From Escherichia coli (lineage in GTDB: Bacteria; Pseudomonadota; Gammaproteobacteria; Enterobacterales; Enterobacteriaceae), in assembly GCF_003334255.1 (NCBI RefSeq), contig NZ_QOWU01000043.1: a stretch of 46,580 nt of DNA. One strand, written 5' to 3'. Within the stretch, counting starts at the first letter, position 1, and the number at the start of each line of letters is the position of its first letter. The position numbers and the translations under genes were made by a program. The notes beneath the pieces are model-generated. The model was not told the DNA's origin. It saw only the letters and a program-made list of their open reading frames with translations, and searched no databases. This document shows positions 99-8,345 of the stretch, in pieces.

Positions 99-1517
99 TC
101 AGACGCCGTAACGTTCGCACCAGCCAAGAATGGCTTTCTCGAAGCAGGCAAAAGGTGGATGCACAATGCCCGCGCCAATCATGCCGACGCCCGCATCTTT
201 ATGGGCGATGGCGGTGTTGATCACCGGCAGAATGCCGCTGCTACCCACGCGGGTGATGTCGATTGCCGACGGCACGCCCATAAAACCGAGCAGCGGAATG
301 GTGACGTTGGGGTTTTCACCGAGGGTGATTTCGCGCATCTGACGGGAGAAATCAATAGCTTCTTCCACCGTGCCGCCCACCAGCGCGACGATAGCGGGCG
401 CGGTCGCCATAGCAAATCCGCCAATACCGTAGGTTTCGGTGATGGCGCTGTCGCCGATATCCAGCCCCGAATCTTCCGGCTTATAACCGGCAAACATCGG
501 GCCGATCACCTGCTGCGCCGGGCCGGTAAACCATTGTCCCGGCAGGCCGCTGACCCGCAGGCCGAACTCGACGCCGTTACGCGCCATGGTGGTGACCACG
601 GTGCTGTATTCGATGCCATGCGCCGCATCCATCGCCGCTTTACACATCGCCATCCACGTCGGGCCGGAGAAGTAGTCGCTGCTGGCGACAAACTCAAACA
701 CTTCGCGCTGTTGCTCGACGGAATAACCCGCCTGAATAATCCCCGGCGTCAGCGCCTGAATCAGCAGTGTCGTCCCGGCGTTATTGCGGTTATGGCACTC
801 ATCGCCCATATGCAGCGCCTGCGCCAGCATTAAGCGCAGATCGATTTCGCCGATAATTTTCATCGCGTCGCGCAGTATTGGTCCCTGCACATCACGCATC
901 CAGTTCAGGCGGTCAATCACGCTCTGGTCGTTAGCGCCCATACGCAAAATCTTCGCCATCTGCTCGCTCATGTTGGTATAAGCGATGTTGCCGTAGGTTT
1001 TGTTTTTTACGATGTGCATAAACATCGAGGCCGAGGTAACACCCGCCATCGATCCCACGCAGTCGTGCTCGTGACACGGCGAGAAGGTGATCTCCCCGGA
1101 AGCCGCCAGTTCAGCCGCCTCGTCGAGATCTTTCGCCAGTCCTTCGAACACCAGCGCTCCGGTGACCGCGCCTTTCATCGCGCCGCACATTTTTTCCCAG
1201 GTGATCGGCGGCCCGGCGTGAAGAATGGTTTTCGCCGTCATGCCCGGCACCACGTTAATCGCCTGATCAAAACCAATCAGCACCGGATGCGACTGGATAA
1301 TACGCTCCAGCGCCTGCTGGTTAGCGGCGGCGATTTTGTCCGCCAGCGGCGAATCGGCAATGTTATCCAGCGCCTGCACCACCTGCATATTGCCCTGCCC
1401 CGGCGGCGTCCAGTCGAGTTGAGTCACTTCTACATGCTGCTTTTTCAGGTCATCGCTAAACATGGCGATGCCGACGTTAATAACGTTCAATGGTTGGCTA
1501 AACAGTGACTGGCTCAT
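99..1517 (-). CDS. yahG: DUF1116 family protein YahG (paralogue of YlbE/AllG)
   Basis: 472-aa ORF; protein recognised from recall as E. coli YahG; start overlaps yahF stop (ATGA junction at 1517). Confidence 0.9.
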   Translation of the reverse strand: MSQSLFSQPLNVINVGIAMFSDDLKKQHVEVTQLDWTPPGQGNMQVVQALDNIADSPLADKIAAANQQALERIIQSHPVLIGFDQAINVVPGMTAKTILHAGPPITWEKMCGAMKGAVTGALVFEGLAKDLDEAAELAASGEITFSPCHEHDCVGSMAGVTSASMFMHIVKNKTYGNIAYTNMSEQMAKILRMGANDQSVIDRLNWMRDVQGPILRDAMKIIGEIDLRLMLAQALHMGDECHNRNNAGTTLLIQALTPGIIQAGYSVEQQREVFEFVASSDYFSGPTWMAMCKAAMDAAHGIEYSTVVTTMARNGVEFGLRVSGLPGQWFTGPAQQVIGPMFAGYKPEDSGLDIGDSAITETYGIGGFAMATAPAIVALVGGTVEEAIDFSRQMREITLGENPNVTIPLLGFMGVPSAIDITRVGSSGILPVINTAIAHKDAGVGMIGAGIVHPPFACFEKAILGWCERYGV

Positions 1518-3064
1518 CAGGCTTCCTCCCCTTTGCAGATAAATTCACGCGCCAGCAATCCGGTATTGGTGCTGCTGCTCGCCAGAATCACTCCGGCATC
1601 AAGCAGCATCTGGCTTTGTTGTTCTAACGATGGCGTATCAAGATCGGTACCCAGCACATAGGCGAGAATGATCAACTCGCGTCCTTCGGCAGCGGCGATC
1701 GCTTTCGCTTCTTTGATCGTCTCGATGGTGGAGCCGACCGGATCTTCATGCGATCCAAATCCGAGCACAAAATCCATCACGATCACCGCCACTTCTGGAT
1801 CGCGCGCCTCTTCGATCAAGCGACTGATGCGGTTGGTGGGGTCAATCATCGGGTGCGGCTTGCCGTTGGTGAAGTCGTCATCGCCAAAGTCGAGGAAGGT
1901 GTGTTTGATGCTGCGGTTGATATCTTTCAGGCGGAATTCCGGATCGGGCTGAATGTTGCTGTAGACATCGCCATGTTTTTCCATCACCGCGAACATGGTT
2001 TCGTCGCACAGCGTGCCGCCGCAGAACAGGCCACGAATGTATTTCTGCTGCGGTTGCAGACGCGCACGCACATCCGCAATCAACGGCTGGTTAAGCGTAT
2101 GCAGGTCGAGATTTTCCTGTTTCACGCCGGAGAGCATCACCGCTTTTAGCGCTGCCTCTTTGGTGCCGCGGGCAAACTGTAGCCCCTGCTCATCCACTGG
2201 CGTTTCGCCACGATCGAGGAAGCAGACGACCACCGGCTTGCGGCAGGCGCGCGCACGTTCCAGCACTTTGCGGGCCACCGCAGGCGCAGGCGGTTTGGAG
2301 ATAAGCGCAATGATTTCAGTTTGCGGATCGTTTTCCAGCATCCCGATGGCGTCGAGCATCATCAGGCCGCCGATTTTCTCGCTCAGGTCGCGCCCGCCGG
2401 TGCCAATCAGTTGCGAAACGCCGCCGCCAAATTCATGAATGCGGACGCTCAACTCCTGACTGCCGGTGCCGGATGCGCCAACAATACCGATGTTGCCGCG
2501 ACGCACGGCGTTACCAAAACAGAGCGCCGCGCCGTTGATAATCGCCGTGCCACAGTCTGGCCCCATCATCAGCAGCCCTTTTTCGTGGGCCAGTTGCTTG
2601 AGCGCCAGTTCATCTTCAACTGAGACGTTATCGGAAAACAGCATCACGTTGAGATCGTTTTGCAGCGCCTGACGCGCTTCGCGAGCGGCAAACAGACCGT
2701 TGACCGAAATCACCGCCAGGTTACTTTCCGGGATATGCTTTTTGGCGCTGCCAATAGTGGCGTAACGCGCCTCGTGCGAGCCGCTTTGCGCTTTGGTGTT
2801 GAACAGTTCTTCAATCTCCACCAGCAACTGCTCGTTGTCCGCACCCGATTTACCATTGATGACAATCATCAGGTCGCCGTTTTTCGCCTGCTCCAGCTCC
2901 GGCGTCAGCAGTCCTAAATTCTTCAGCACGCCTTTATTCATTTCGGTCGCCATCGCCACAAATGCCTGCTCGACGCCGTCGAGTTTATTTGCACGCGTGG
3001 AGATAGACATCAGCGAGACAGAATCAAAATAGGTATTCGGTTTAATGACTATTTTAACTGACAT
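1517..3064 (-). CDS. yahF: FdrA-like CoA-binding / succinyl-CoA synthetase alpha-like protein YahF
   Basis: 515-aa ORF with glycine-rich CoA-ligase-like motifs (GIVGASGTG, GGRD); recognised as YahF; overlaps yahE by 11 nt. Confidence 0.9.
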   Translation of the reverse strand: MSVKIVIKPNTYFDSVSLMSISTRANKLDGVEQAFVAMATEMNKGVLKNLGLLTPELEQAKNGDLMIVINGKSGADNEQLLVEIEELFNTKAQSGSHEARYATIGSAKKHIPESNLAVISVNGLFAAREARQALQNDLNVMLFSDNVSVEDELALKQLAHEKGLLMMGPDCGTAIINGAALCFGNAVRRGNIGIVGASGTGSQELSVRIHEFGGGVSQLIGTGGRDLSEKIGGLMMLDAIGMLENDPQTEIIALISKPPAPAVARKVLERARACRKPVVVCFLDRGETPVDEQGLQFARGTKEAALKAVMLSGVKQENLDLHTLNQPLIADVRARLQPQQKYIRGLFCGGTLCDETMFAVMEKHGDVYSNIQPDPEFRLKDINRSIKHTFLDFGDDDFTNGKPHPMIDPTNRISRLIEEARDPEVAVIVMDFVLGFGSHEDPVGSTIETIKEAKAIAAAEGRELIILAYVLGTDLDTPSLEQQSQMLLDAGVILASSSTNTGLLAREFICKGEEA

Positions 3065-3917
3065 AATTCCCTCCGTAGGTTTGGCTCAGCACACAACCAT
3101 CGGCCATGCCATACAGCATGTCGCAGCCGGAACTGGAGCCAATATGTTTAATTTTTTCTATTGCCTGAGTTGCGTTCCCAGGGATGTCATAAATAATGTT
3201 GTGAATAAAACGATGAATATTTTCCCGGCAGCGTTGTTGTAATGCGGCTTCCAGCGTTATGGCACTTAATAATGTGGTATTATTTTTGCCGCGTTGCAGA
3301 CCGAGATAAAATTCCTCTTTGTATTTTTCCGCCGGATGCCCGGGAATAAATAAAATAAGCGCCAGACCTGTTAAATAATCGTCGGCTGATGGCGTAAGGC
3401 CAATCCCTAACCCCATCATACTGGCGACCGCTGAGGCGATATTTTGTTTATCGTTTACGGCCTGAATAACTGCCCGTCGTTTAATATGTAATTCTTTATT
3501 TAACGCCTGATAAAACGGATTATCGCCGCGATAATTAAACAGGGTTTCATTTTCCCCCAGGTGCTGATGAATAATGTCGTGCCACTGTAGCCAGGCGATA
3601 AGGTGAAAATTCACAGCGGTCATTTGCAAGGTTGGGGACAGCCAACGCCGACAACGACTCATCTCTATATGAAGATGTTGACCAACCGTAATACCTTGAT
3701 CGTCAAACTGAACCTTATCACCATGCCGGAACAGATCATCAAAGTGAGTGAGTGCCAACCGACAACTGTTTGGCGCATTGTCGTACTCTTCACAAAGCAG
3801 CGTCAGCAACTGCTGGCGAGCCGGGAGTGCGATATTTACCGCTCTGGCAAAGACCTGTTCAACCTGTCCTTGCCCCCGCTGCGCCAGAAAATCCGCATCC
3901 GCAGTTAGCGCCCACAC
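3054..3917 (-). CDS. yahE: DUF2877 family protein YahE (paralogue of YlbF/AllH)
   Basis: 287-aa ORF in operon arrangement with yahF and yahG; recognised as YahE. Confidence 0.85.
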   Translation of the reverse strand: MWALTADADFLAQRGQGQVEQVFARAVNIALPARQQLLTLLCEEYDNAPNSCRLALTHFDDLFRHGDKVQFDDQGITVGQHLHIEMSRCRRWLSPTLQMTAVNFHLIAWLQWHDIIHQHLGENETLFNYRGDNPFYQALNKELHIKRRAVIQAVNDKQNIASAVASMMGLGIGLTPSADDYLTGLALILFIPGHPAEKYKEEFYLGLQRGKNNTTLLSAITLEAALQQRCRENIHRFIHNIIYDIPGNATQAIEKIKHIGSSSGCDMLYGMADGCVLSQTYGGNYVS

Positions 3918-3956
3918 ACACCGTCTTTCTGGTGTGTTGATAGCAAGCCTCCCGGT

Positions 3957-4562
3957 TTATGCACCTGCGGCAATCAGTAACTGCGCAATCTCTTCAAAGC
4001 CCCGTTCCCGCGCCAGTTCCAGTGGCGTTTTGCCATATTTATCGGTCAGATGCGGGCTGGCACCGTGTTCCAGCAATAACTGCACAATCGCCTGCTGTTT
4101 AATACCACCATCATTAAGCACAATCGCTTCCAGTAGCGGCGTCCAGCCTACATGGTTGGTCTGGTTAACGTTAATCTCCGTATGCGCCAAAAGCTCTTTT
4201 ACAATACTTAAATGGCCTTTTTCACAGGCAGGCGTCAGGCCGACACCGCCAAAACGGGTTACGCAATTAAGATCGGGTTTAGCCGGTAAAATAATTCGTA
4301 GTAGCGTTAAATCATCGTTCAGACAGCTAATTAAAAAAGGATTTAAACAGGTATGATCTTGCTTATTAATATCCGCTCCGGCATCAATTAATGCCTGAAC
4401 GCAAGCATATTGCTGATATAAACTTGCCAGCGTAATTGCCGTTTTCCCCTGACGATCGCAGGTATTAATATCGACACCCAGCGCAAGGCAGGTTTTTACT
4501 TTATCGATATCACCCTGTTGTGCAGCCAATAAATAGTCGGCAGGTAGATTTTTTATACTCAT
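3957..4562 (-). CDS. yahD: ankyrin-repeat protein YahD
   Basis: 201-aa ORF with tandem ankyrin-like repeats (GKTAITLAS...LIDAGADIN; GWTPLLEAI...LLEHGASP; GKTPLELA). Confidence 0.9.
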   Translation of the reverse strand: MSIKNLPADYLLAAQQGDIDKVKTCLALGVDINTCDRQGKTAITLASLYQQYACVQALIDAGADINKQDHTCLNPFLISCLNDDLTLLRIILPAKPDLNCVTRFGGVGLTPACEKGHLSIVKELLAHTEINVNQTNHVGWTPLLEAIVLNDGGIKQQAIVQLLLEHGASPHLTDKYGKTPLELARERGFEEIAQLLIAAGA

Positions 4563-4665
4563 TCACATTCCCCTGGTTTTTGTGGCTGTTTTCGATGAAT
4601 TGAGAATAGCAACGATAATCTGATAAAAGAACCCGCTTAAATTTAATTCGCCGTATCTCGCCTTT

Positions 4666-4686
4666 TTGTTGAATAATATTCAACAA
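4666..4686. promoter_or_regulatory. 21-bp perfect palindrome TTGTTGAATA-A-TATTCAACAA in the yahD/yahC divergent intergenic region; candidate operator
   Basis: Direct read of sequence; function not established. Confidence 0.4.
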
Positions 4687-4819
4687 TCTTTTCGCAGTGT
4701 GCGGTAGTGCAATATTTGTTTCTTTGACCCGATACCCTTTCACTCAATCAGGTTTTATTTCTCTATAGTCTGCACATGTAAGAGTAGCTTTCGTCCATGT
4801 CTAACCAGAGGGGAACAAG

Positions 4820-5317
4820 ATGAACGGACTCACGGCAACGGGTGTCACCGTCGGTATTTGTGCAGGGCTTTGGCAGTTAGTGTCTTCACATGTCGGGCTC
4901 TCTCAAGGATGGGAATTATTAGGAACCATTGGCTTCGTCGCCTTTTGCAGTTTTTATGCCGCAGGCGGCGGTAAATCGGGGTTTATCAGAAGTCTGGCGG
5001 TTAATTATTCCGGGATGGTGTGGGCGTTTTTCGCCGCGCTGACTGCTGGTTGGCTGGCCTCTGTAAGTGGACTGTCCGCGTTCTGGGCGAGCGTAATTAC
5101 TACCGTACCCTTCTCGGCGGTAGTGGTCTGGCAAGGGCGTTTCTGGTTACTGTCCTTTATTCCCGGTGGCTTTCTCGGCATGACGCTGTTTTTTGCCAGC
5201 GGGATGAACTGGACGGTGACGTTACTGGGTTTTCTGGCGGGTAACTGCGTGGGGGTAATTTCAGAATATGGTGGACAAAAATTAAGCGAAGCGACGACTA
5301 AACGCGACGGGTATTAA
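4820..5317 (+). CDS. yahC: inner membrane protein YahC
   Basis: 165-aa hydrophobic ORF, multiple predicted transmembrane segments; recognised as YahC. Confidence 0.85.
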   Translation: MNGLTATGVTVGICAGLWQLVSSHVGLSQGWELLGTIGFVAFCSFYAAGGGKSGFIRSLAVNYSGMVWAFFAALTAGWLASVSGLSAFWASVITTVPFSAVVVWQGRFWLLSFIPGGFLGMTLFFASGMNWTVTLLGFLAGNCVGVISEYGGQKLSEATTKRDGY

Positions 5318-5408
5318 AAGTTATTCAAAAATGATTATCTATCTTTAACCGATACCTCTACAGTCATAGCTGGAGAAATTCATAGTAGATAATGGCGAGA
5401 ATGGTTTA

Positions 5409-6341
5409 ATGAACTCAATTTTTACCGAAGAGAATCTGTTGGCATTTACTACCGCTGCGCGTTTTGGCAGCTTCAGTAAAGCCGCAGAAGAGTTGGGTTT
5501 AACCACTTCCGCCATTAGCTACACCATTAAGCGTATGGAGACGGGGCTGGATGTGGTGCTGTTCACTCGCAGTACCCGCAGCATTGAGTTAACGGAGTCC
5601 GGGCGTTATTTTTTCCGCAAAGCTACCGACCTGCTGAATGATTTTTATGCCATCAAACGCAGTATCGATACTATTTCGCAGGGCATAGAAGCGCGTGTGC
5701 GCATTTGTATTAATCAGCTGCTTTATACGCCCAAACACACCGCACGCTTGTTACAGGTGCTGAAAAAGCAGTTTCCTACCTGCCAGATTACCGTCACCAC
5801 CGAAGTGTATAACGGCGTCTGGGATGCGATTATTAATAATCAGGCCAATATCGCCATCGGCGCACCCGATACACTACTGGACGGCGGCGGTATTGATTAC
5901 ACTGAAATTGGCGCGATTCGCTGGGCTTTTGCTATCGCCCCGGATCACCCGTTAGCCTTTGTGCCGGAACCCATCGCCGAAAGCCAACTGCGTCTCTACC
6001 CTAATATTATGGTGGAGGACACCGCGCATACGATTAATAAAAAAGTGGGCTGGTTGCTGCACGGGCAGGAGTCAATTCTGGTGCCAGATTTCAACACCAA
6101 ATGTCAGTGCCAGATTTTAGGTGAAGGAATTGGTTTTTTGCCGGATTACATGGTCCGTGAGGCGATGACGCAATCCCTGCTGGTTACCCGACAAATCCAT
6201 AATCCGCGCCAGGATTCGCGCATGTTACTGGCGACTCAGCATTCTGCTACGGGTCAGGTGACGCAGTGGATTAAAAAACAATTTGCGCCAAATGGCATAT
6301 TAACGGGGATCTATCAGGATTTACTGCATCGGGAGAATTAA
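5409..6341 (+). CDS. yahB: LysR-family transcriptional regulator YahB
   Basis: 310-aa ORF; N-terminal LysR helix-turn-helix (FSKAAEELGLTTSAISYTIKRME) plus substrate-binding domain. Confidence 0.9.
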   Translation: MNSIFTEENLLAFTTAARFGSFSKAAEELGLTTSAISYTIKRMETGLDVVLFTRSTRSIELTESGRYFFRKATDLLNDFYAIKRSIDTISQGIEARVRICINQLLYTPKHTARLLQVLKKQFPTCQITVTTEVYNGVWDAIINNQANIAIGAPDTLLDGGGIDYTEIGAIRWAFAIAPDHPLAFVPEPIAESQLRLYPNIMVEDTAHTINKKVGWLLHGQESILVPDFNTKCQCQILGEGIGFLPDYMVREAMTQSLLVTRQIHNPRQDSRMLLATQHSATGQVTQWIKKQFAPNGILTGIYQDLLHREN

Positions 6342-6382
6342 TCGCTGCCAACCTCCCGATGCGCTGTGAATAGCGGTTTACA

Positions 6383-7471
6383 TCAACCACCTGCTTTCAT
6401 TACCCATTCAGAGATAAATTTATTACCCGGTACTGGCGGAGAGTACAAATAGCCCTGCAAAAAGTGAACGCCTTTACCGATCATTAAATCCGCCTGCTCC
6501 TGGGTTTCTACCCCTTCCGCCACGATACTCAGACCAGGCTTACGCGCTAGTTCGACAATATTGTCCACAATATGACCGGAGATTTCGTCGACACTCGCCA
6601 TTTGCACAAATGACTTATCGATCTTAATAAAATCGACCGGGAACGCCTGCAAGTAACGATAGGTCGCATAACCCGTACCAAAGTCATCCAGCGCAAAGGT
6701 AATGTTGTGCTGATGAAGGCTGTCAAATATCGCTCTGGCTTCTGGCGTTACCGGAATAGGGTTACGTTCCGTTAGCTCGAGAACCAGCTTGATTTTATCG
6801 TTACCTAATTTATTAACCAGGTTCAGACACTCTTTTTCAAATCCCGCTGCCAAAAAACAACCCGCCGAGACGTTGATGCCAATATGGAAATTGTCCGGCA
6901 GCAAATGTTTTACCGGCATCAGAATATCCGCAGTCTGTTTCATCAGTTGGCGGGTCATTATGACAATAAGACCGGATGACTCCGCCAGAGGAATAAACTG
7001 ATCCGGTGGGATAATTCCCGTTTGTGGATGTTCCCAGCGGACAAGCACCTCACAGCCCGTCAGTACCCCAGTCTGCGCGCAGAAAACCGGTTGGATCCAC
7101 GGTTTGAATTCGTGGTTTTCCAACGCCAGACTGATGGCTTCAGGCGTGACGATATGGTGATAGTGATTATCATTAATATATCTGTGACTATTACTCCCCG
7201 TGGCGGATATGATCTCCGGATTGTACTGAAAGAAAATATCGCGCCAGAAAGTAATATCGCTCTGAATCCCCAGTTTCTCAAAGAGCTGTTTCTTTTGATG
7301 TGAAATTGTCTTTGCACTGCGATTTCTGTACTGTGATATTTCTGTTACAGACATTCCCTGCATCAGCAGCTTGAGTAGCAGTCGTTCTTTCTCGGATACG
7401 CTACCAGGCAATGACAAATGAACCGTTGTACCGAACTCTTGCAGAAAAACACGAAAATCACATGAATTCAT
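6383..7471 (-). CDS. pdeL: c-di-GMP phosphodiesterase PdeL (LuxR-type HTH + EAL domain)
   Basis: ORF 6383..7477; N-terminal LuxR-type HTH and C-terminal EAL domain (ELTE, DDFGTGY motifs); start placed at third codon to give the 362-aa K-12 form, 7477 is an alternative. Confidence 0.9.
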   Translation of the reverse strand: MNSCDFRVFLQEFGTTVHLSLPGSVSEKERLLLKLLMQGMSVTEISQYRNRSAKTISHQKKQLFEKLGIQSDITFWRDIFFQYNPEIISATGSNSHRYINDNHYHHIVTPEAISLALENHEFKPWIQPVFCAQTGVLTGCEVLVRWEHPQTGIIPPDQFIPLAESSGLIVIMTRQLMKQTADILMPVKHLLPDNFHIGINVSAGCFLAAGFEKECLNLVNKLGNDKIKLVLELTERNPIPVTPEARAIFDSLHQHNITFALDDFGTGYATYRYLQAFPVDFIKIDKSFVQMASVDEISGHIVDNIVELARKPGLSIVAEGVETQEQADLMIGKGVHFLQGYLYSPPVPGNKFISEWVMKAGG

Positions 7472-8305
7472 GAACACACCTTTATCTTTTATCGCTGTTC
7501 AGTATGAGTGATTACCTGTCGATTCCTGAGCACACATAAGGGGTAACCATAAACATCAGGGATGCCATACGTATAACATCCCACATCACTATCAAGAAGA
7601 TTATCTTTACCTCTGATGCTCGCTCAAAAACAGTTACGCTAAATACCTTAAAAAGGTAATCACAAGTCAAACTCAGGAGATAATCACGCAAGAATGCAAT
7701 ATTAAAATTCAGATACTCATTTTTGGTAATAAAGAAGTAGTTGGACTATTTCAATATTTATAATTTCCCACTACATACTGGCATCCATTCATGAGCAAAG
7801 GCGCATTATATGAATTTAACAATCCAGATCAACTGAAAATACCTCTCCCTCATAAACACATAGCGTCAACATTCAATGACATAATGAGTAAAGATGTTGG
7901 TTATGCATACGTATCATTACTCTATGCCTGTCCCTTAAAAACCCACTCATTAAGACTGAATCCATTCAGCAAATGATAACCAATATTATAGCAATGCCAA
8001 TAAAAACAATATTTAAAACATTCAATAAAATATCACACACAGATAATTAAACCTTAAATAACAAATGGTTGCGTTAATTTCAGTTGATTTACGATACACA
8101 TTTCTCATGAATAATGCGTCATTTCAAATGATCAGCAATATTTACATTAAATAAGACTAAACTTATTGAACATTCGCAACAGCCCAAATGTAGGTTTTGG
8201 GCTGCAATAGTTCTTTTCTTTTTTATTATCTGTTGTCTGGTAATCATCAATAGATACTAAGGGCTTAACCGTATAGATATAACGTATCAAGAGGTAGGAG
8301 AAACA

Positions 8306-8327
8306 GCGCCATATGCAGACATGGCGC
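8306..8327 (-). terminator. hairpin GCGCCAT-N8-ATGGCGC 20 nt downstream of betT stop, T-rich on both flanks; probable betT terminator
   Basis: Direct read of inverted repeat and flanking T/A runs. Confidence 0.5.
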
Positions 8328-8345
8328 GGTTTTATGCAATAACAA

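Follow-up and report, generated by a model that had tools for sequence, protein, structure and literature searches.

The spacer between the betT and pdeL genes of Escherichia coli raises the question of whether it holds nothing more than the long control region of pdeL, or also a signal that ends transcripts made from the opposite strand. In the window, by which we mean the whole analyzed stretch of 46,580 nucleotides from E. coli contig NZ_QOWU01000043.1, this spacer lies at 7472..8345 between betT (8346..10379) and pdeL (6383..7471), both encoded on the minus strand. Its measured length of 874 bp agrees with the gap of about 870 bp reported in a first-pass annotation of the same DNA, and the AT-richness noted there by eye is borne out by an overall GC content of 33%, with values of 0.27-0.36 across 7600..8300 as against about 0.5 in pdeL and betT.

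We are virtually certain that the region is the betT-pdeL spacer of K-12-like E. coli and thus the known pdeL control region, since sequence comparison and annotation agree and the oligonucleotides, promoter hexamers and start sites from the literature can all be placed in the window. Alignment with K-12 MG1655 and ATCC 8739 revealed a single difference over 941 bp, a private G at 7560 within the pdeL leader, where both reference strains carry a C. The comparison with the orthologous K-12 region, which the first-pass annotation had proposed, therefore upholds its reading of the spacer as the known long pdeL regulatory region, in which boxes, promoter and start can all be placed. The K-12 gene order betT-yahV-pdeL likewise matches the window, and K-12 positions (NC_000913.3) are obtained as 339842 minus the window position, the window plus strand being the K-12 minus strand. 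The older U00096.2 numbering is 776 lower than that of NC_000913.3, an offset that agrees with the Affymetrix spacer name IG330721_331594. The spacer is widespread: a megablast search detected it in 5184 of 5426 complete E. coli genomes, in 3651 of them at full length. Except for the hairpin and the T-run discussed below, all of its contents have already been described for K-12.

The pdeL gene acts as a bistable c-di-GMP switch, and its promoter relies on PdeL bound at the distal PdeL box. According to Reinders et al. (bioRxiv 10.1101/2021.10.01.462762), the Cra box of the control region overlaps one of two PdeL boxes, the Cra-dependent one (CDB), and the Cra-independent one (CIB) lies distally; IHF and Fis sites are located between the two, and H-NS sites are present as well. 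The gene is repressed by H-NS (bioRxiv 10.1101/2021.10.01.462762; H-NS flag in PMC3946193). Matching primers 4695/4696 of that study to the window places the Cra box and CDB at 7941..7970; the Cra box itself, CTGAATCCATTCAG (7956..7969), has one mismatch to the Cra palindrome consensus and is invariant in all haplotypes of our variation sample (11 sequences). The CIB band-shift fragment (primers 4991/4997, supplement of bioRxiv 10.1101/2021.10.01.462762) corresponds to 8114..8180, and within it the CIB palindrome AATAAG-N6-CTTATT falls at 8150..8167, a position deduced from the published '10 bp up- and 33 bp downstream'. The fragment used for RNA polymerase spans 7793..7970 (primer table of the same preprint). 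Our promoter scan located the pdeL promoter TTGATC-16-TATAAT on the minus strand (-35 at 7832-7827, -10 at 7810-7805), and identical hexamers with an H-NS flag are given for yahA by Shimada et al. 2014 (PMC3946193). Mapped pdeL starts lie at window 7800 (K-12 332,042; SMRT-Cappable-seq, PMC6131387) and, among the sites listed by Cappable-seq (PMC4782308), at window 7799 (U00096.2 331,267, equal to 332,043), which leaves a 5' leader of about 329 nt (7472..7798, minus strand). This leader is highly conserved, with 7 variable sites per 300 nt in the haplotype alignment, and further capped 5' ends listed inside it lie at 7713 and 7563 (minus strand; Cappable-seq/SMRT-Cappable-seq).

Three smaller features of this part of the spacer deserve mention. 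The most variable 30-nt bin, 7920-7949, holds 11 variable sites, overlaps the CDB and adjoins the invariant Cra box. The private G7560 completes a 10-pair leader hairpin on the minus strand, GGGAUGUUAU-ACGU-AUGGCAUCCC followed by UGAUGUUUAU (7559..7582), which the scanner calls terminator-like; all other haplotypes have C at this position, and a K-12 capped 5' end lies at 7563. Finally, the top-scoring promoter-like site of the spacer, TTGGCA-16-TATCAT (7973..8000, minus strand), lies inside yahV and has a predicted start at about 7966, on the Cra box, where the start-site tables list no start among their entries for this region.

The first-pass annotation had seen no convincing open reading frame in the spacer, and this view has to be given up. 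The small gene yahV (b4730) occupies 7966..8040 on the minus strand in the K-12 and ATCC 8739 annotations, starts with GTG and encodes a hydrophobic protein of 24 amino acids that was detected as a tagged protein and counts among the newly detected small proteins of VanOrsdel et al. 2018 (PMC6001520); its translation in the window is identical to the published sequence. The gene is intact in all six haplotypes examined, including the B2-type and other haplotypes, in which the 24 codons and the GTG start are preserved even where RefSeq leaves them unannotated. Between the K-12 and B2 types, yahV shows eight non-synonymous and no synonymous differences, and all versions are hydrophobic. Among the Cappable-seq sites listed for the K-12 plus strand, none falls between the betT end and yahV, and the nearest listed minus-strand start upstream of yahV lies inside betT (U00096.2 330,673, window 8393), so that yahV may be transcribed from there, across both the betT terminator and the hairpin. 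Adams et al. 2021 (PMC7815308) report a Rho-termination region for K-12 with its peak at 331,703 on the plus strand (window 8139; p = 1.3e-15, Rho score 3.74), which places it on the strand of betT, yahV and pdeL. On the other strand, a 61-codon reading frame (7791..7976, plus) is open in all haplotypes and is listed as 'hypothetical protein' in some E. coli records (a cluster of 108). By eye it has no Shine-Dalgarno sequence, and we rejected it as a gene, given a pN/pS of 0.69 compared with 0.42-0.90 in the other five frames and no NCBIfam match.

The element at issue lies immediately upstream of the CIB. The hairpin CAGCCCAAA-TGTAGGT-TTTGGGCTG was found exactly as the first-pass annotation had described it, at 8180..8204, with a 9-bp stem (8180-8188 paired with 8196-8204, loop 8189-8195) that contains six G-C pairs. 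The plus strand continues with CAATAG and TTCTTTTCTTTTTTATTAT, and the T-rich tract that had been noticed a few bases beyond the hairpin proved to be the densest plus-strand T-run of the spacer (8211..8229). At -14 to -16 kcal/mol (z = -3.2 to -3.6), the hairpin is the most stable local 40-nt fold of the spacer on both strands, and equal stability was reached in 4-8 of 150 dinucleotide shuffles (3-5%). It starts at 8180, which is the last base of the CIB fragment, and is 12 bp away from the CIB palindrome. Upstream of it, as had been stated, there is no annotated plus-strand gene.

Folding of the plus-strand RNA around the hairpin, a check that the first-pass annotation had called for, predicts a larger structure with a stem that reaches the U-tract: 16 pairs, interrupted, extend from 8168 to 8213 with an energy of -16.2 kcal/mol and abut UUUUCUUUUUU. 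In this predicted fold, an outer, lower helix (GAACAUU with AAU-GUUC, 8168-8174 with 8206-8213) surrounds the core stem and leads directly into the U-tract UUUUCUUUUUUAUUAU (8214-8229). The lower helix is weak, as it is A-U rich and contains a bulge and an internal loop. The gap to the U-run thus amounts to 6 nt when counted from the core stem, and to 0 if the predicted lower helix forms; it is because of these 6 nt that a simple scanner gave no call at the hairpin. On the minus strand, an A-run precedes the stem and no U-run follows it. Folds, shuffles and a window-wide calibration together delimit a candidate terminator-like element at 8168..8229 on the plus strand, and such a structure would be present on this strand only. 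Its predicted plus-strand 3' end falls at about 8220-8222, equivalent to about 331,620-331,622 on the K-12 minus strand.

For the calibration, we used a detector that asks for a fold of -11 kcal/mol or below and then for 10 T in 12 within 26 nt, and that was defined after the sequence had been seen. In the spacer it made one plus-strand and no minus-strand call, as compared with a call on either strand in 1 of 300 shuffles. Across both strands of the 46.5-kb window it found only one other site, at 10311 (minus strand), toward the 5' end of betT. This site, a hairpin with a U-rich tail (10301..10345, stem end at 10311), is 10 nt away from a 3' end that Term-seq mapped at K-12 329,541 (plus strand), 78 nt into betT (Adams et al. 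2021, PMC7815308), and could be a premature termination site in betT. Its coincidence with a mapped 3' end lends the detector some credibility.

A further terminator borders the spacer on the betT side. The stem of the intrinsic betT terminator (8306..8327) is called terminator-like on both strands, with a tail of UGUUUCUCCU on the minus strand and of GGUUUUAUGC on the plus strand and folds of -15.8 and -16.5 kcal/mol (z about -3.7), which confirms the plus-side U-run that had been noticed there. In the alignment, this stem lengthens to CCGCGCCAU...AUGGCGCGG in other haplotypes.

Transcription of the spacer on the plus strand has been observed in vitro. In a run-off/microarray study by Maciag et al. 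2011 (PMC3141248), the probe set IG330721_331594-r, which represents this spacer, was 'transcribed in opposite direction' and was a better template for the sigma-S than for the sigma-70 holoenzyme (sigma-S/sigma-70 ratio 2.07), while the corresponding -f probe set, which covers the yahA promoter, was among those preferred by sigma-70. Genomic DNA digested with EcoRI served as the template, and this enzyme has a site at 7465..7470; it is therefore plausible that this plus-strand RNA originates within the spacer. The tables from living cells that we compared (Term-seq/BCM and SMRT-Cappable-seq) list no such transcript. On the K-12 minus strand between 331,500 and 332,699, neither a 3' end nor a Rho-termination region is listed under three growth conditions (PMC7815308), and the SMRT-Cappable-seq tables contain no transcript boundary other than the pdeL start between K-12 331,300 and 332,499 (PMC6131387). 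The Cappable-seq sites that we compared (PMC4782308) are those listed for the K-12 plus strand, which is the minus strand of the window. In our weight-matrix promoter scan, the best plus-strand sites of the spacer scored 6.5 bits, compared with 10-11 bits on the minus strand, and were not conserved. A search of Rfam at a permissive threshold returned two matches at chance level (17 bits vs thresholds of 41-60), the published accounts of pdeL control that we found mention no terminator, antisense RNA or yahV, and yahA goes unmentioned in the 'promoter island' paper. The terminator-like structure and the opposite-strand transcription in vitro speak for the hidden plus-strand transcript that the first-pass annotation had considered; the poor promoters, the in-vivo tables compared and the Rfam result speak against it. 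Plus-strand 3' ends near 8205..8230 and a plus-strand promoter had been named there as the decisive signs; no such ends are listed and no good promoter was found, but the 3'-end result weighs little, because the terminator of betT itself is also missing from that list (PMC7815308).

Variation among E. coli strains provides a second line of evidence, for which we compared 11 sequences that fall into six haplotypes. The hairpin contains 5 variable sites in 25 nt and belongs to the more variable parts of the spacer. The adjoining stretch 8205-8235 has no variable site in the 11 sequences, and the sequence on its flanks differs by about 15% between haplotypes. Three changes affect the stem: C8183T, A8188G and G8204T. 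The two transitions convert Watson-Crick pairs into G-U pairs in the plus-strand RNA and into A-C mismatches in the minus-strand RNA, and the transversion breaks the terminal pair in either RNA. As a result, 93.3% of the pair cells of the core helix are kept on the plus strand vs 82.2% on the minus strand, and for the whole element, haplotype pair counts give 96.3% vs 90.0%. Compensatory double changes do not occur in the stem among these 11 sequences and six haplotypes, and the bias toward plus-strand pairing rests on two transitions, a pattern that would arise by chance about once in four times. We therefore take the stem variation as a hint of plus-strand constraint, not as proof. Only the K-12-type class (1682 records with at least 99% identity over 8040..8305) has the perfect stem, and weaker stem forms occur in about 2100 records, or roughly half of the genomes. 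In C2 and B2 haplotypes the hairpin folds at -12.7 and -11.3 kcal/mol with z values of only -1.7 and -1.3, respectively, which are not significant. An exact-pattern scan anchored on the Cra box in one genome per species yielded four chance matches, none of them in Escherichia.

Based on these observations, we tentatively regard the hairpin at 8180..8204 as the possible core of a one-directional intrinsic terminator for plus-strand RNA, the best supported of the readings considered, to which we give somewhat less than an even chance. Expressed as one statement together with the identity of the spacer, the interpretation comes close to an even chance without reaching it, and it is the terminator part that holds this joint estimate down. 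If a plus-strand terminator is present, it would be rarely used. The nascent plus-strand RNA would fold into the interrupted 16-pair stem of 8168..8213, and since this stem abuts UUUUCUUUUUU, RNA polymerase would release the transcript near 8220. The likely task of such a terminator would be to stop transcripts that are begun on the 'wrong' strand inside the AT-rich spacer. Naked DNA gave rise to such transcripts in vitro, and cells would be expected to make them mainly upon relief from H-NS or with sigma-S. The stop would fall just past the distal PdeL box and before the antisense transcript runs into betT, and 100 bp beyond it the betT terminator, being two-sided, could serve as a back-up. 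An active terminator 12 bp from the distal PdeL box, together with the antisense RNA that it ends, could add another layer to the pdeL switch, and it could protect betT from antisense transcription. Going one step further, plus-strand RNA made from the pdeL control region under sigma-S or upon H-NS relief might cross yahV and the distal PdeL box, end at about 8220 and act as a discrete cis-antisense regulator that targets yahV, the occupancy of the pdeL switch by PdeL/H-NS, or both; we regard this extension as improbable. A real terminator would be an ordinary intrinsic terminator in an unusual place, and an inert one would reduce our analysis to a re-description of a well-mapped K-12 regulatory region.

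Much of the variation described above would also fit a hairpin and T-run without any present function. In AT-rich, H-NS-coated DNA that evolves fast, they may be a product of chance or a fossil, for example what is left of a terminator whose plus-strand gene has disappeared. A hairpin of the same stability arises in a few percent of shuffles, the structure accumulates substitutions without covariation and is weakened in about half of the genomes, neither PMC7815308 nor SMRT-Cappable-seq lists an in-vivo transcript end for it, and the ehaA-type allele lacks an equivalent of 8068..8305. We nevertheless consider such a functionless structure rather unlikely: hairpin and T-run occur jointly in only 1 of 300 shuffles, 8205-8235 stays invariant amid divergent flanks, the substitutions that did occur spare plus-strand pairing, and the spacer is transcribed on the plus strand in vitro (PMC3141248). 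The same stem could instead work in minus-strand RNA, either by protecting a 3' end or pausing polymerase on betT read-through transcripts ahead of Rho, or as part of a yahV leader, and could thereby shield the pdeL control region. In K-12-type genomes the perfect stem is just as stable in minus-strand RNA, the Rho-termination peak at 8139 follows 40-65 nt downstream on that strand (PMC7815308), and yahV RNA, for which the only listed upstream capped 5' end is the one at 8393 inside betT, may cross the hairpin. What speaks against a minus-strand role, and makes us consider it improbable, is that no U-run follows the stem on this strand, that PMC7815308 lists no 3' end for this strand at the hairpin, and that most non-K-12 haplotypes carry internal A-C mismatches and have lost the local fold while yahV is still intact.

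A plus-strand terminator might also close a small RNA of its own, about 100-120 nt long. Its promoter would lie around 8070-8115, with transcription beginning close to 8102 or 8122, and the RNA would span the distal PdeL box and end at about 8220. Two weak promoter-like sites, TTGCGT-15-TACGAT and TTTACG-16-AATAAT, are found at a suitable distance, and both the terminator-like 3' end and the in-vitro transcription of the opposite strand (PMC3141248) would be compatible with it. These sites are low-scoring, however, four were found where 4.5 are expected by chance, and they are destroyed in other haplotypes (TTTGCG, AATAAA); with no Rfam match and no in-vivo start or end listed, we think a self-contained small RNA very improbable. 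Least of all do we expect that the inverted repeat is a DNA site, such as a protein-binding palindrome or a cruciform beside the distal PdeL box, instead of an RNA element. Its geometry would suit such a site, being a perfect 9-bp inverted repeat with a 7-bp spacer at 12 bp from the CIB palindrome, and it forms the sole GC-rich block within an AT-rich stretch. Its symmetry decays, however, to 6 of 9 positions in B2-type haplotypes, and the published PdeL band-shift fragment holds only the first base of the stem, 8180, so that PdeL binding does not need the repeat. We know of no regulator with a binding site that resembles this repeat. Nor was there any sign that the hairpin segment stems from a mobile element: a search among records of phages and plasmids returned only mislabelled chromosomes and F-prime plasmids.

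How the putative terminator relates to known systems can be judged on several levels. The K-12 pdeL (yahA) regulatory region is the same region, one base apart and with all published elements mapped in the window, and differs in that the hairpin and T-run immediately upstream of the CIB are absent from those of its published descriptions that we found. With typical intrinsic terminators, the element shares a G+C-rich stem-loop and a U-run, and its energy and U-run density resemble those of the 10311 site in betT. It departs from them in that its U-run abuts the 8180..8204 hairpin only via the weak, interrupted lower helix, and in that 8168..8229 has neither an annotated upstream plus-strand gene nor a mapped 3' end. 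In contrast to the two-sided betT terminator, it would be one-directional. A further relative is the spurious or antisense transcription of AT-rich DNA that H-NS silences (Singh et al. 2014), along with the sigma-S run-off transcripts made from intergenic DNA (PMC3141248). The spacer is likewise AT-rich, H-NS-flagged and transcribed on the opposite strand in vitro (PMC3141248), whereas a dedicated terminator for such transcripts is a step that we infer here, and no in-vivo antisense transcript is documented at the spacer.

A different allele of the locus is found in about 1500 genomes, including O157:H7 and O55:H7, which carry the 4-kb autotransporter gene ehaA between betT and pdeL (positions 1484..6040 of the O157:H7 Z1767 locus were compared with window 7486..8305). 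The window and O157-type genomes are homologous precisely up to the betT terminator (8306) on one side and up to 7485, 14 bp before the pdeL start, on the other. The region upstream of ehaA in O157:H7-type genomes shares the Cra palindrome GACTGAATCCATTCAGC and the promoter blocks GCGCATTATATG and ATCAACT with the window, but otherwise resembles it only weakly, and the 4-kb gene takes the place of the pdeL leader. As the Cra palindrome and the -10/-35 blocks are shared, the K-12 pdeL promoter appears, from this sequence comparison, to be the counterpart of the ehaA promoter, a correspondence for which we found no discussion in the literature searched. The ehaA-type allele has no counterpart of 8068..8305 and consequently neither hairpin nor T-run. 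Remnants of ehaA in the spacer were sought with the EhaA protein, and none were found.

The spacer has also been altered by insertion sequences. IS1 has inserted into it independently in some strains, among them strain C1 and STEC388 (5288..5985), and the latter strain has lost most of the spacer, with yahV and the hairpin among the missing parts. At the other end of pdeL, this gene (minus) and yahB (plus) converge at 6342..6382 with 41 bp between their stop codons. By eye, no obvious strong terminator is present at this junction, and read-through from yahB would be antisense to pdeL.
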